IMG/VR virus record: IMGVR_UViG_3300035501_000484
Location: 1 to 64,000 of that record
DNA from: a virus
Length of the DNA stretch: 64,000 nt
Reading direction: 5' to 3' (one strand)
Below the pieces are notes generated by a model. The model did not search any database. It saw only the letters and a program-made list of their open reading frames with translations, and was not told where the DNA came from. Both the position numbers and the translations under genes were made by a program. Positions 2,159-63,386 of the stretch are shown in pieces; the stretch's first letter is position 1; every line of letters starts with the position of its first letter.

Positions 2159-2187
2159 ATTATAACATATTTTTTTAAATAAATCAA
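2159..2187 (-). promoter_or_regulatory. consensus sigma70-type promoter (TTGATT, 17 nt spacer, TATAAT)
   Basis: Minus strand reads TTGATT + 17 nt + TATAAT, upstream of the 1597..2118 gene. One member of a repeat family of about 30 copies. Confidence 0.55.
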
Positions 2188-2215
2188 AAAGAGGCTCGCC
2201 TTTAAAGCTAGCCTC
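2183..2215 (-). terminator. rho-independent terminator (hairpin plus U-run) after the ATPase gene
   Basis: gaggct...agcctc hairpin at 2191-2215. On the minus strand it is followed by a U-run (plus-strand aaaaa at 2185-2190). Confidence 0.5.
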
Positions 2216-2225
2216 ATTTTTTTCT

Positions 2226-3179
2226 TTATTCATTTGCTGGATTTAAATTTTCTGTTAATTCTTTTAAATCCGTAATGATTAAATCAAGTGCTTCTACTTG
2301 GTCACGAGAACATTGATTTACTTTCTGACCTTTACCAAGATATTTGTCAGTAATCTGAACAATTCTTGGTTGCCAATAACTCTTAAAGTATTCTTCTGAA
2401 TTATTTACAATTAAATTATTAACAATAGAATTAAAACTATCAACTAATTCATCAAAATCTAATTCTTGTGTAACATTAGAATATAAGTTATTTCTTTCAT
2501 TGGTAAAGTATTCAGTACCATCTTCCGCAGCTTGTTTATCAATAGCATCACTAATAGCTTTTACTAATGCATTATAATTAAAATCTATATAATCTGGTGT
2601 ATACTTAAAACGGCTGCCTGCTATATAACGTGGTGTACCTCGCATAAATAGCTTTGTAGAAGTTGTTCCATCTTCATTTTGAATTGCTCTTGAATATGCT
2701 ATAATATCGCACATTCTTGAAACTATATTACGAGCTTTACTTCCTAATGTTGGAACAATCTGATTAAACTCGTTACCTTGTTCATCTTTAAAAGTTTTAT
2801 CAGCCGCATGACTAATTAAAACTAGACCATAGTCCATCTGAACAATACTTCTTAAACATTCATCAAATTCTTTAGCTACCATTGTATATCCCTTACCATA
2901 AGGAATATCTCCAACTGCGTCTACACCAAAACTGCCGTCTCCACGAGGAGCATTTGCACAAATATATTTCTCACAATCATCATATGCAATATCCGCAGTA
3001 TCAATAATTATAGTTTCGTACATCGCCTTAACATTTTCATCTTTAAGTTGTCTTAAAACCTTTTTAAATTCAGACCAAGAATTAATAGGTTGAGCCATCG
3101 CACCTGGAATTGCGTTATATCCTTTTTCAAAGGCTAATAACAAATGCCTAGGAAATTTAGTGGCTATTGTGGTTTTACC
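2226..3179 (-). CDS. AAA_24/Sak4-like RecA-type ATPase, exon 2 (GKTTIATKF... onwards)
   Basis: The ORF begins right after a stop with TTG-GGT-AAA-ACC, in the middle of a Walker A box. Joined to exon 1 the P-loop reads GEPKSGKTT, and LLLAFEKG/IIIDT match the AAA_24 fold. Confidence 0.7.
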   Translation of the reverse strand, partial: GKTTIATKFPRHLLLAFEKGYNAIPGAMAQPINSWSEFKKVLRQLKDENVKAMYETIIIDTADIAYDDCEKYICANAPRGDGSFGVDAVGDIPYGKGYTMVAKEFDECLRSIVQMDYGLVLISHAADKTFKDEQGNEFNQIVPTLGSKARNIVSRMCDIIAYSRAIQNEDGTTSTKLFMRGTPRYIAGSRFKYTPDYIDFNYNALVKAISDAIDKQAAEDGTEYFTNERNNLYSNVTQELDFDELVDSFNSIVNNLIVNNSEEYFKSYWQPRIVQITDKYLGKGQKVNQCSRDQVEALDLIITDLKELTENLNPANE

Positions 3180-4293
3180 CAATTAGTTATTAACTGTAAG
3201 TTTTTTATCTTACACTCTGGAGATTACTCTCATTTTCATCGACTGGTTATTTCCAATCCAGTTTAGCGTACCTTCTCTTCCTTATTTAAGGAAGTCGCAG
3301 ACTCTTGGCTTTACTATATTCTATTATTTTGTTTCTTCCATTCTATATATTTATTATATTTTCTTTGAAGATAAAAACTATTTGTTTTATTCATAATTTG
3401 ATACATAGAATCTAAAATTTGTATAACATCTTTAGTCGAATAAGTTAAAGTATAATAATTCTCTCTACTAGGGTCTTTATATACTTCCTTATGACTATTA
3501 ATTTTTTGATTAATTATTTTTGCAAAATCTTCTAAAATTGTTTTATCATATGAGCAAATTTCAAATCTACAAGTTGTTCCATCATTTTTAAAACAACCAT
3601 CGCCATCATAATATCCTAAAATATAAGCTAATTTAAAGTCATCATTTTCAAATTGAGGTAAGTGGATTCCTTTATAAGTTTTATTTGGAACAATATCATA
3701 TTTAACTAATTTATTTTTATGATTTTCACTACTCCAACTTAATTCTGAAATTTGAAATCCTTGATTAGTTTCATAATCTAAAATTTCTCTTTCAGAGTTT
3801 AATTCTTTCTGAATTTTTTCAAGAATTTCTCTATCTACTGAACTTAGTCCTATTTTTATTCTATTTCTATCTGATGCTACAGAACCATCTGCCGCAAGAA
3901 AACCAAGTAGCCATGCTTTTTGACAAGTATCTATATTATCAAAATAAGTATGATTAACTTTCTTTCCTCTCTCTTGATTAGTAATTTTATTTTGCTCAGC
4001 TCTAGTTCTTATTTTAATTCCATTATCAATAAGAATTTTTTTAATTTTTGCTCCATATGTATTATATTTATTTGCAATAAAACTTAAAGATTTTCCTTCA
4101 TTATATAATTGAATCATATCTTGGATGTCCATATGTGTAACATTCTCCTTTAAAATAATAGTTTCAAAAGCTACGCGTTGCGTGTGTTATAATTGTTATA
4201 TTATAACTTCCCTTCGGATTCATCTAAATAGAAGTTCCCGATTTTTCTGCGATGTGAACTTTATAGTTACCTATAAAGAGAGCAGTTTTATTT
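3180..4293 (-). mobile_element. group I-type intron (about 1114 nt) interrupting the AAA_24 ATPase gene, carrying a LAGLIDADG homing endonuclease ORF
   Basis: Exon 1 (4294..4380) ends ...CCAAAGAGU and is followed by an in-frame stop. The intron starts AAAUAAAACUGCUCU, where GCUCU can pair with exon AGAGU to give P1 with a U.G at the splice site. The intron's last nucleotide is G (plus-strand c at 3180) just before GGT AAA ACC. About 295 nt of non-ORF intron remain for the ribozyme core. Confidence 0.6.
3314..4132 (-). CDS. LAGLIDADG homing endonuclease (double-motif, intron-encoded)
   Basis: Two LAGLIDADG motifs, LLGFLAADGSV and ILGYYDGDGCF. Own RBS, AAAGGAGA 9 nt upstream of the ATG at 4132. 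Confidence 0.8.
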   Translation of the reverse strand: MDIQDMIQLYNEGKSLSFIANKYNTYGAKIKKILIDNGIKIRTRAEQNKITNQERGKKVNHTYFDNIDTCQKAWLLGFLAADGSVASDRNRIKIGLSSVDREILEKIQKELNSEREILDYETNQGFQISELSWSSENHKNKLVKYDIVPNKTYKGIHLPQFENDDFKLAYILGYYDGDGCFKNDGTTCRFEICSYDKTILEDFAKIINQKINSHKEVYKDPSRENYYTLTYSTKDVIQILDSMYQIMNKTNSFYLQRKYNKYIEWKKQNNRI

Positions 4294-4380
4294 ACTCTTT
4301 GGCTCTCCATAGAAGAAGACTGAATAACCCCTAAGGTCTCGACTAACTTGATGAGGCTGTATATTTAATAAATCTATCAT
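4294..4380 (-). CDS. AAA_24/Sak4-like ATPase, exon 1 (MIDLLNIQPHQVSRDLRGYSVFFYGEPKS)
   Basis: RBS GGAGAAAA and ATG at 4380. 29 codons ending in the first half of the Walker A box; an in-frame TAA follows unless spliced to 3179. Confidence 0.65.
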
Positions 4381-4449
4381 GCTATATATTTTCTCCTTAT
4401 TTATTATCAATTTAAACTAGAAATATAAGGGCTTCCGCCCTTATATTAT

Positions 4450-61740: not shown

Positions 61741-61815
61741 ATAAATAACCTCTTTCTTTTTATTTACTTTATATATATATTATAATAAAAATTTTAATAA
61801 AAATAAAGAGGAAGA

Positions 61816-62010
61816 TTACTTCTTCCTCTTTGCACTTTGAACTAAATCATATGTTATATTTCCAGCTAAAAAACTCCAGCATGCCGCACCTGTTAAATTT
61901 GCAAATATTAAAAAATTATTTGGAATATAATAAGCAGACAGCACACCTGCTAAACAAAGTAATATAAAAAATATACTAATTATTAATCTAATTATATTTC
62001 TTTTTAACAT
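61816..62010 (-). CDS. hypothetical small membrane protein
   Basis: 64 aa with 2 TM segments. Confidence 0.2.
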   Translation of the reverse strand: MLKRNIIRLIISIFFILLCLAGVLSAYYIPNNFLIFANLTGAACWSFLAGNITYDLVQSAKRKK

Positions 62011-62207
62011 AATTATTTCTCCTTATTTTAATTATTAAATAACAATTTTATTAATTCTATTATAATATAAATAATTCGAGTTCCATAAAGAAATATTAAA
62101 CAAAAGAAAAAAAGCATACACCATATTATTCCAATTACTTGCATTTATTTTTATACCTCCTAAAATGCGGAAGGTAGGTTAGTAGCGCTACTAACCTACG
62201 ATTGCCG

Positions 62208-63323
62208 CTATACAGAATAATGGATTTGTGTTTCCTTTTGACGATGGAAAATTAATTTAATTGGCTTTACATCTTTGTATTTAGTATATATATTATAATC
62301 CTCTTCATCATTTGGATTATTAAGATAATCATAAAGACTAAATGTTAAAGAATTTTGAGGTATAATACAATTTCCTGAAGTAGTATCAAAGATATTATCA
62401 GAAGGAATAAATGATAATTTACCTAAATCATATCTTCCCATTATATCGTCAAATTCAATACTATTTTCTTCATCACTAAATAAATCAATTGGATAATTAT
62501 ATTTTCTAAGTTGCTCACCATTGCTAAGTTGAAGAACAAGATTATATCTATCTTCTTTAAGATTAATAATATTTAAATCTTTTATAGCTTCCTCAAAGGG
62601 GCTTCCGCAATTTAATTCAAAAGCTATAGCTCTTAGGCAATCATAATTTAAATTAATCTTCTTAGAAAAAGATATAACTGCCTTTATTTCTGTCCAATAT
62701 ACTTTATCAAGATGCTCTTGTAAATATTGAGTAATATCTTCTGATGTTGGATATTGAAATCTAAAATGATAATGAAAACGCCCAGGTCTATTTACTAAGA
62801 ATGAGTTTAATTGGTTTAAATTATTACATGTTACTACAAAGAGCTTTTTTCCTTGAGCAATACCATCAAATAATGATAGCATCTCTGCCTGTGGGTCTAA
62901 ATTATCTAATCTTTGAAATACTTTATCAAATTCATCAAATAAAACTACTACTTCTTGTTCTATTTGGTTAAGATATTCCGCTATCCCGCGTACATATGAA
63001 TTTACTATTATAAGTGGCAATCCTTGCTCTATAGCTTTTTGAGCGAGCATCTTAGAGAATAAAGACTTACCAATACCCTTATCTCCGCTTAAAATTACAC
63101 CTAAATTACGATTAAAATGATTAAATGTATTTAATACTTTATTTACTTTTGCTTCATGAACGCCATAAATCTTTTCTTTAATCTCTATATCAGCATAAAG
63201 AGTTAAAAAGAAACCTTGATTTGGGTCAAAATTTACTAAATAGCTTTGAGCAGGCAACTCATCATAAGTGTGCATACTATTGCTATAGATTCTATATTCA
63301 TTTCCAGTTTGAATTGCTTTCAT
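62208..63323 (-). CDS. AAA+ family ATPase
   Basis: Walker A GDKGIGKS and Walker B VVLFDEFD; 371 aa. Confidence 0.55.
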   Translation of the reverse strand: MKAIQTGNEYRIYSNSMHTYDELPAQSYLVNFDPNQGFFLTLYADIEIKEKIYGVHEAKVNKVLNTFNHFNRNLGVILSGDKGIGKSLFSKMLAQKAIEQGLPLIIVNSYVRGIAEYLNQIEQEVVVLFDEFDKVFQRLDNLDPQAEMLSLFDGIAQGKKLFVVTCNNLNQLNSFLVNRPGRFHYHFRFQYPTSEDITQYLQEHLDKVYWTEIKAVISFSKKINLNYDCLRAIAFELNCGSPFEEAIKDLNIINLKEDRYNLVLQLSNGEQLRKYNYPIDLFSDEENSIEFDDIMGRYDLGKLSFIPSDNIFDTTSGNCIIPQNSLTFSLYDYLNNPNDEEDYNIYTKYKDVKPIKLIFHRQKETQIHYSV

Positions 63324-63347
63324 ATTTTAAATCCTCTTTCTTTATCA

Positions 63348-63386
63348 TTTATATAAATATTATATCATTTAATTTTTTAAAAATCA
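63348..63386 (-). promoter_or_regulatory. consensus promoter (TTGATT, 17 nt spacer, TATAAT) for the AAA+ gene
   Basis: Minus strand reads TTGATTTTTAAAAAATTAAATGATATAAT. Diverges from the plus-strand promoter at 63434. Confidence 0.5.

Follow-up and report, generated by a model that had tools for sequence, protein, structure and literature searches.

A classic strategy among large lytic phages is to carry arrays of host-type promoters that are over-optimised. The early promoters of T4 are known as 'über' promoters, in which UP, –35, TGn and –10 elements are combined with additional consensus, and were interpreted as out-competing the host promoters (PMC2988021). In SPO1, the promoter PE5 is sigma-A dependent in vitro (PMC13401047), and the promoter classes of the Kayvirus 812, whose record annotates both promoters and terminators, have also been described (PMC6445280). 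Here, we analyzed 64,000 nt of the IMG/VR virus record IMGVR_UViG_3300035501_000484 (hereafter, the window), which has a GC content of 29% and is transcribed almost wholly from the minus strand. The window contains 31 copies of a near-consensus sigma70-type promoter motif with a rigid 17-nt spacer. The array reveals no new mechanism, and it differs from its precedents in the A-tract and start-box signature, in its extent beyond a host-takeover module and in being nearly unchanged across a clade of phages.

SPO1 appears to resemble the phage of the window in being a large lytic Firmicutes phage with many short small-gene units, each under its own sigma-A promoter, and in having a phage-specific consensus beyond the hexamers with a GTG/TG extended –10. 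By the criteria applied to the window, the 13-kb terminal redundancy of SPO1 holds 11 promoters, all with a 17-nt spacer, whose signature comprises an upstream AAAAAG, TTGACT, the spacer TT..CTAC.....GTG and a –10 of AATAAT or CATAAT. This signature is distinct and lacks a conserved downstream box. Furthermore, the SPO1 promoters are confined to the terminal redundancy, whereas the present array extends over at least 73 kb and includes replication, tRNA, lysis and diversity-generating retroelement (DGR) units, and no phylogenetic relation between the two phages is detectable beyond generic Firmicutes-phage replication genes. The T4 early promoters likewise occur in dozens of copies per genome and combine an excellent match to the elements of the host RNA polymerase (RNAP) with extra consensus. 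By comparison, T4 infects a Gram-negative host and has a conserved UP element and the –35 GTTTAC, whereas the motif described here has no UP element and carries its information in the spacer and start site; in addition, T4 promoters are modulated by Alt ADP-ribosylation, and no ADP-ribosyltransferase is seen in the window. The Kayvirus terminal repeats (Staphylococcus phage K/812) belong to an equally AT-rich (29% GC) large Firmicutes phage and show consensus –35 and –10 elements, a 17-nt spacer and an ATGt extended –10 before small terminal-repeat genes. They are looser, with six sites in 12 kb under the same criteria and a –10 that is mostly TATTAT, and have neither a conserved A-tract spacer nor a downstream box. 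Our searches of the literature returned no earlier description of the motif or of the combination of TTGATT, TATAAT and phage.

An enriched and conserved promoter motif

The core pattern TTGAYW-N17-TATAAT has 23 matches in the window, 21 on the minus strand and two on the plus strand, whereas 0.44 ± 0.69 are expected from 100 dinucleotide-preserving shuffles, the maximum of which was four. A 50-nt position weight matrix (PWM) built from the 21 minus-strand core matches and used at a cut-off of ≥15 identified 29 minus-strand sites, 27 of them scoring ≥25, with a best score of 54.5. The top score in twenty simulated 64-kb sequences was 13.9, and about zero null sites are expected at ≥15. With the two plus-strand sites, the total of 31 agrees with an earlier note on this DNA, which had reported about 30 copies. 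All 28 locations cited there hold a site, the five described as having a weak –35 reading TTTATT or TTTACT, and three sites had been missed (5914–5942 on the minus strand, and 25581–25609 and 63434–63462 on the plus strand). Six further sites in the same orientation lie in the 9.3 kb beyond the right end of the window, on a locus (L156) that is identical to the window.

A chance or compositional origin of the motif in AT-rich intergenic DNA is refuted by the shuffles and by a control genome, and we give it practically no credence. The low GC content would favour such an origin, as would a loose sigma-70 scan that revealed no enrichment over shuffled sequence (121 found vs 113 expected, and 117 vs 122), so that a loose promoter scanner is unusable alone as evidence. 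Against this, the core matches exceed expectation by 23 to 0.44, the site scores reach 54 against the null maximum, the motif is strand and position specific and is kept in orthologues, and the unrelated 176-kb gut phage MT835469.1 (30.6% GC), used as a negative control, has no PWM matches ≥20. The shuffles and this 176-kb phage together indicate that AT-richness is not the cause of the motif. MT835469.1 was also considered as a clade member, since it shares a tail-like protein at 28% identity, and was rejected for want of motif matches. Six plus-strand PWM matches (18610, 23465, 43090, 45895, 55702 and 61763) were likewise discarded as mirror images of minus-strand sites; they score 15–20, lack the TTG and lie about 44 nt from minus-strand sites, as a product of the A/T pattern.

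The full consensus reads TTGATT-TTT-www-AAAAA-w-TATGa-TATAAT-ATTTATATAA, followed by a purine-rich leader. Its elements, in order, are TTGATT, TTT, www, AAAAA, w TATG a, TATAAT, ATTTA, TAT, and AA plus purines, in which TATG at –17 to –14 corresponds to the TRTG motif of the Gram-positive '–16 region'. The exact 17-nt spacer is found at every window site, as the earlier note had stated. The –10 is TATAAT at 28 of the 29 minus-strand sites, with TACAAT at 9082 as the sole exception, whereas the accompanying TGn, given in that note as part of the motif and optional in housekeeping-sigma promoters, is present at only 11. Two further generalizations proved too broad: the spacer is purely A/T at 17 of the 29 sites, and the conserved downstream element, which the note had read as ATATTTATATAAA, lies within two mismatches of ATTTATATAAA at 20 of them. 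The –35 begins with TTGA at 23 of the 29 (TTGATT at 18, TTGACA at two, TTGACT at two and TTGAAA at one) and takes the weak form TTTATT or TTTACT at five window sites.

All 31 sites lie between genes, in the orientation of the gene or tRNA that follows. The distance from the last base of the –10 to the next start codon is usually 22–62 nt; otherwise the site precedes tRNA genes. The motif does not occupy almost every gap, as had been claimed, but only 25 of the 47 minus-strand gaps of ≥45 nt, and many of the site-free gaps fall between tRNAs. The picture of one promoter per gene or short operon was likewise overdrawn: the units hold between one gene and nine open reading frames (ORFs), and one of them covers some 10 kb, from 39660 to 29533. 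At 5488, 5942, 9082, 14505 and 52564, the TGA stop of the upstream gene is embedded in the –35 (T-TGA-YW), an extremely compact packing of coding and regulatory sequence. At five of the 29 sites, a hairpin with a folding energy (dG) of ≤ –10 abuts the –35, compared with 4.7% of random control positions. Downstream, a YRY triplet is centred 7 nt past the –10 at 24 of the 29 sites, which is predictive of the start only; the 15 nt that follow are 85% purine vs 56% in the background, and GGAG ribosome-binding sites are visible downstream of the leaders. Upstream of the –35, the information in the window is ≤0.3 bit per position, the clade shows only a weak A enrichment (41–52% at 8–12 nt upstream), and many sites abut a stop codon, terminator or tRNA where a UP element would lie. 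These observations indicate that there is no UP element, and the UP-like element suggested in the earlier note was therefore not borne out.

The 31 sites are as follows; in the text, minus-strand sites are named by their right-hand coordinate, and tight class denotes TTGATT-17-TATAAT-ATTTATATAAA.

2148–2187, minus strand: TTGATT-17-TATAAT with TGn; terminator hairpin (dG –13.7) running into the –35; YorH-like gene and DnaB; kept in orthologues
5449–5488, minus strand: TTGACA-17-TGaTATAAT, 12/12 consensus; upstream TGA stop within the –35
5903–5942, minus strand: TTGATT-17-TATAAT; predicted to drive the winged-helix gene 5485–5856; upstream TGA in the –35; missed earlier
8828–8867, minus strand: TTGACA-17-TGaTATAAT, 12/12 consensus
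9043–9082, minus strand: TTGATT-17-TGaTACAAT, then ATTTATATGAA
14466–14505, minus strand: TTGACT-17-TGaTATAAT; upstream of gyrB and gyrA; lowest PWM score (15.3); lost in aligned orthologues
15050–15089, minus strand: TTGACT-17-TATAAT; after a strong terminator (15158–15128); RNase H
18618–18657, minus strand: TTGATT-17-TATAAT; hairpin (dG –11.2) abutting the –35; seven-gene unit, the last gene encoding an amidase
21245–21284, minus strand: weak –35 TTTATT; Major Vault Protein (MVP)-like gene; the orthologue in locus L079 has TTGATT
23470–23509, minus strand: tight class
25483–25522, minus strand: tight class with TGn; divergent from the plus-strand promoter at 25581
25581–25620, plus strand: TTGACA-17-TGtTATAAT; tail-like DGR target gene and reverse transcriptase; missed earlier
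39621–39660, minus strand: tight class; begins at the last base of tRNA-Cys; unit of about 10 kb including the 2144-aa gene
41430–41469, minus strand: tight class; upstream of tRNA-Ala; promoter and 30-nt leader duplicated at 41768
41729–41768, minus strand: tight class; upstream of tRNA-Lys; upstream hairpin (dG –13.4); duplicate of the 41469 cassette
43095–43134, minus strand: tight class; top PWM score (54.5)
44867–44906, minus strand: tight class; four tRNA genes
45900–45939, minus strand: tight class
46993–47032, minus strand: tight class; downstream half of a tandem pair, 75 nt from 47107; copy absent in locus L084
47068–47107, minus strand: TTGAAA-17-TGtTATAAT-ATTTATATAAA; upstream half of the tandem pair
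47447–47486, minus strand: tight class with TGn
50614–50653, minus strand: tight class; –35, –10 and box invariant in orthologues; unit of six ORFs and one tRNA
51963–52002, minus strand: TTGATT-17-TGaTATAAT-AAATACATAA; kept at six orthologous loci despite differing upstream genes
52525–52564, minus strand: tight class; upstream TGA stop within the –35
52786–52825, minus strand: weak –35 TTTACT; spacer and downstream box conserved
55707–55746, minus strand: TTGTTT-17-TATAAT and downstream box; abutting terminator hairpin (dG –13.4); RNA ligase unit
56811–56850, minus strand: weak –35 TTTATT, with TGn
60528–60567, minus strand: weak –35 TTTATT; unit of nine ORFs
61768–61807, minus strand: weak –35 TTTATT; hairpin (dG –13.6) whose closing T-run forms the –35
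63348–63387, minus strand: tight class with TGn; AAA ATPase gene; divergent from the plus-strand promoter at 63434
63434–63473, plus strand: TTGACT-17-TATAAT-ATTAATATAAA; missed earlier

The motif is also widespread beyond the window. An exact scan with the pattern TTGATTTT-N4-AAAA-N2-T-N-T-N2-TATAATATTTATATAA matches at least 115 stretches in IMG/VR, most of which, among the matches listed, lie on contigs of 100–200 kb. In the GTDB genomes, 33 stretches match, nearly all in gut metagenome-assembled genomes (MAGs) labelled Bacilli, Erysipelotrichaceae, Mollicutes or Clostridia, and two of these are contigs of 158 and 164 kb that resemble co-binned phage genomes. The motif-bearing loci homologous to the window share 64–80% nucleotide identity with it across the gyrase, DnaB and MVP-like genes, and a megablast search of 12 kb of the window against 50,697 phage records returned no match.

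Two controls address selection bias. When the loci were re-scanned with the minimal core only, 329 sites unselected by the exact pattern displayed the same spacer and downstream consensus, the downstream 10 nt typically being one to three mismatches from ATTTATATAA vs six to seven at control TATAAT sequences. When sites were instead anchored on the –10 and the downstream box alone, 318 were found clade-wide, and TTGA lies exactly 17 nt upstream in 293 of them (92%) and at 16 nt in two, with TTGATT as 79% of the –35 hexamers. Within the spacers of these 318 sites, T occupies –29 to –27 (82–94%), A occupies –23 to –20 (91–99%), and T(–17), A(–16), T(–15) and G(–14) follow at 97%, 77%, 97% and 60%, respectively; the 12 nt past the box are about 85–93% purine.

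Conservation is also evident at orthologous positions. The promoters at 52002, 50653, 5488, 2187 and 21284 are kept in orthologous intergenic alignments in which coding identity is only 67–72%, and the columns of the –35, TG, –10 and box show little or no variation, whereas the flanks cannot be aligned. In the orthologues of 2187 and 21284, a terminator hairpin runs into the –35 with a different stem sequence and the same architecture. Across 34 genomes, the per-genome consensus is nearly identical, 12.4 of 33 variable positions differing within a genome vs 13.2 between genomes. This uniformity points to a clade-wide optimum rather than to recent copying inside one genome.

The predicted reader of the promoters

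Our analysis indicates that the sites are probably strong promoters of a large uncultivated gut phage that are read by the housekeeping RNAP holoenzyme (sigma-A) of its host. The dependence on host RNAP proposed in the earlier note is supported by the consensus architecture, the intergenic and co-oriented placement, the orthologous conservation and the likely Firmicute host. We infer this host to be a low-GC Firmicute whose sigma-A uses the consensus, on the basis of the MAG bins, the DnaB relatives, the YorH-family neighbour and the GGAG ribosome-binding sites. The nearest cultured relatives of the DnaB protein, at 38–41% identity, are from Bacillus SPbeta-like, Enterococcus, Staphylococcus, Lactobacillus and Enterocloster phages. 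At 66–2118 on the minus strand, a YorH-family protein (PF26927) adjoins DnaB, which is 38% identical to SPbeta YorI; the pair hints at a distant link between this clade and the SPbeta-like Bacillus phages.

The positions conserved beyond the hexamers had been attributed to recognition by an extra protein, such as a phage factor. Kuo et al. 2025 dissected the promoters of 49 bacteria and described a four-region spacer, which consists of a T-rich tract by the –35, a low-signal stretch, a second AT-tract and a G/TG Ex region and alters promoter strength up to 600-fold (PMC12641261). In the same study, a YRY start element of 3 bp was reported to fix the start and raise strength when its centre lies 7 or 8 bp past the –10; Terrabacteria were found to have a discriminator rich in AT or AG, and Firmicutes an initially transcribed region rich in AG (PMC12641261). 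The spacer regions, Ex/TG, discriminator, YRY triplet and AG-rich initially transcribed region of this generic core promoter coincide with the conserved positions of the phage motif; the difference is that the cellular elements are statistical enrichments, whereas in this clade they are near-invariant in each copy. Since each conserved block, the TRTG motif included, matches an element that RNAP itself prefers, an extra factor is not required, and the simplest reading of the motif is an idealised, fully equipped sigma-A promoter, the extra conservation of which would reflect optimisation for RNAP.

On this basis, the –35 TTGATT and the rigid 17-bp spacer with its T-tract, low-information stretch and A-tract would engage RNAP together with the Gram-positive '–16' TRTG/TGn extended –10, the perfect TATAAT and the AT-rich discriminator. 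The T-A-T (YRY) triplet would then set the start on the A located 7 nt past the –10, and the purine-rich, unstructured leader would lead into the GGAG ribosome-binding site. Host RNAP would thereby be captured efficiently at about 30 points in the window and at more beyond it, and its transcripts would cover short units, each with one to nine genes or one to five tRNAs; some of these units would be ended by intrinsic terminators whose U-tract merges with the next –35.

Several observations weigh against this assignment. The evidence for the host is limited to MAG co-binning and protein affinities, the preference of its sigma-A is assumed, and the start sites, strength and timing of the promoters are all predictions. 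The near-invariance of the A-tract (98–99%) and of the downstream box exceeds what is usual for host promoters, and a clade-conserved DNA-binding factor would account equally well for it. In addition, five sites carry a G-to-T change in the –35, four of the five without a compensating TGn and with all else kept, which is unexpected if the contact with sigma region 4 is the main constraint. Finally, the genome is at least 114 kb long, as estimated from an 88.7-kb contig, and about 73 kb of it has been seen, so that a phage RNAP or sigma gene is possible elsewhere.

This last point bears on another proposal, in which an RNAP or sigma factor encoded by the phage replaces the host holoenzyme as the reader; we regard this as very improbable. 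Large phages often carry transcription machinery of their own, the replication genes here resemble those of SPbeta (YorH and YorI), a phage that encodes the YonO RNAP, and the 2144-aa protein in the part of the genome seen has no assigned function. However, the motif corresponds to a textbook promoter of a housekeeping sigma, down to the TRTG motif and the rigid 17-bp spacer, whereas the promoters of SPO1 gp28 and gp33/34, of the phiKZ and AR9 polymerases and of the crAss virion RNAP look different. Moreover, no sigma factor or RNAP domain was found among the approximately 50 window proteins scanned. The 2144-aa protein was considered as a giant RNAP and rejected, as it matches nothing in PDB or NCBIfam; its homologues sit in 45-kb Bacteroides phages. 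Somewhat less remote, though still improbable, is that the sites are sigma-A promoters whose A-tract and/or ATTTATATAA box is bound by a clade-conserved regulator, whether phage-encoded, virion-delivered or from the host, which would switch the whole set together in a global early shut-off or boost. The strong conservation of A(–23) to A(–20), a downstream box stronger than the last two –35 positions, and the weak –35 variants that retain spacer and box intact are consistent with such a regulator, and a small winged-helix protein (5485–5856) is encoded in the window under one of these promoters. There are also phage factors that act on sets of early promoters, namely T4 Alt and ModA (PMC2988021) and SPO1 Gp33 (PMC13401047), but these target RNAP and not a DNA operator. 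The RNAP-intrinsic explanation is sufficient for every conserved block, there is no convincing dyad symmetry beyond A/T chance, the plus-strand mirror matches scoring only 15–20, and the near-equal consensus in 34 genomes fits a conserved host enzyme at least as well.

A role in recombination is a further alternative. The repeat of about 45–80 bp may be mainly a recombination module like the PeSL cassettes of T4-type phages, in which homologous exchange among the copies would shuffle cassettes of genes and tRNAs and keep the sequence uniform as much as selection for strength does; we consider this unlikely as the main explanation, and a recombination function plausible, rather than established, as an added role. 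In 10 of 81 cases, against about 0.7 expected, a homology block shared by the window and its relatives stops 0–6 nt upstream of the –35, and block ends were found at 18 of the 24 gene starts that bear a promoter vs eight of the 48 that do not. At 52002 and 50653, relatives that share the promoter have different neighbouring genes on one side; an 80-nt unit of promoter and leader is duplicated before tRNA-Ala and tRNA-Lys; and the tandem pair 47107/47032 of the window corresponds to a single promoter in locus L084. The PeSL cassettes, which provide the precedent, also carry a terminator hairpin and an early promoter at variable cassette borders, with homology breakpoints falling at the element (PMC4122927). 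By comparison, in the window, only five to eight of the 29 sites have a hairpin. The enrichment of hairpins fused to the –35 favours the proposal, but such composite terminator–promoter elements are a minority. Likewise, the clustering of breakpoints is not proof of exchange, because BLAST blocks would be inclined to stop at the border of any conserved island beside fast-evolving intergenic DNA anyway. The within-genome similarity, which is only about 6% above that between genomes, argues against strong concerted evolution, and recombination would be a role added to promoter function, not an alternative to it. Finally, the two proposals may hold at once, the A-tract and ATTTATATAA box being a site for a clade-specific factor (a phage protein that is virion-delivered or made early, or an RNAP modifier) that acts on some 40 or more promoters in concert and the 45–80 bp unit being a homology patch for cassette shuffling. 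We rate this combination as improbable as the regulator itself; if it were true, one factor would co-switch promoters over a family of 100–200 kb gut Firmicutes phages.

Three other functions were considered for the conserved positions and set aside. As a dyad-symmetric operator, the motif offers only short A/T palindromes (AATATT and TTATATAA), such as chance alone produces where a sequence consists of A and T. A sigma-dependent pause element, in the form of a second –10-like TATAAA at –1 to +5, is not distinctive in AT-rich DNA. The consensus of NAD-capping promoters is HRRASWW, and the start box does not match it.

With sigma-A as the probable reader, the motif would allow the transcription units of an uncultivated clade of large phages from gut and rumen to be mapped with a single pattern, and it backs a low-GC Firmicutes host independently of other evidence, as a Bacteroidetes host would use a different promoter grammar. 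It unites the RNAP-intrinsic elements, namely the four-region spacer, start element, discriminator and initially transcribed region, in one near-invariant natural sequence. It may thus be viewed as a natural 'consensus experiment' for Firmicutes promoters and as a candidate strong, portable promoter part for genetically intractable gut Firmicutes.

Gene content and neighbouring features

The window encodes DnaB, a YorH-like protein, gyrase A and B, DNA ligase, RNase H and a Sak4-like protein, as well as a tRNA-repair and maturation set, 14–16 tRNA genes, lysis enzymes, a DGR and many small ORFs. Beyond the window, the YorH-like gene is found only on contigs of ≤2 kb. As regards the early/middle class suggested in the earlier note, promoters of this one type stand before the units with the amidase, a SleB-like hydrolase, the tail-like DGR target and the 2144-aa protein, and also before replication, tRNA and small-gene units; the window shows no late module for contrast. 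In the 158-kb contig JAFVUY010000119.1, a strict-pattern scan yields matches only at about 24–112 kb, a hint that the motif may be confined to part of the genome.

Close to the tandem promoter pair, an 823-nt block (46060–46882, minus strand) is 92.7% identical to positions 4113–4934 of locus L084, whereas the flanks are 65–77% identical. The block starts with a sequence resembling a tRNA 5' half, GGGATGTAGCTCAGTTGGTA, holds a 237-aa ORF with a weak zinc-ribbon match, and ends in a borderline tRNA-like element (46062–46135, 29.3 bits). The block may represent a mobile unit that was exchanged recently.

Rfam searches of the window identified tRNAs only, both at the gathering threshold over its whole length and at E ≤ 0.1 over 39.6–47.5 kb. 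Two tRNA genes on the minus strand, at 44690–44758 and 45705–45772, were recognised by Rfam (40.7 and 44.6 bits, respectively) and were not called by ARAGORN. Four gaps of 330–460 nt in the tRNA region (39746–40173, 43327–43784, 43868–44276 and 44361–44689) contain no coding-strand ORF of ≥60 aa, tRNA, promoter site or Rfam match, and could hold unrecognised non-coding RNAs. The cluster of 14–16 tRNA genes is adjoined by the repair and maturation toolkit (17115–24584, 53198–54415 and 55773–56588, minus strand), which comprises an RNA ligase, a Thg1-like tRNA-His guanylyltransferase, a nucleotidyltransferase, an AAA_33 kinase, three metallophosphatases and YqeY. Its composition suggests a counter-defence against host anticodon nucleases.

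In the long unit that also encodes the 2144-aa protein, a 489-aa protein (37780–39249, minus strand) has the domains DUF2828 and DUF7788, and no relative of it was found by sequence among solved structures. The DGR on the plus strand (25651–29401) is complete, with a variable repeat (VR) at 27180–27276, a template repeat (TR) at 27836–27932 and a reverse transcriptase at 28160–29401. The 97-nt TR lies upstream of the reverse transcriptase gene and is 85% identical to the VR at the 3' end of the 554-aa tail-like gene, and a reading of both repeats places the mismatches at TR adenines. The 840-aa protein encoded at 18691–21213 on the minus strand, whose gene has its own promoter at 21284 and shares 80% nucleotide identity with the relative L046, aligns with eukaryotic MVP over about 470 residues (query 331–803 vs MVP 330–805, E 1.4e-12) and matches the Pfam families MVP_shoulder and Vault_3. 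It thus appears to be a near full-length MVP homologue, which is unusual in a phage.

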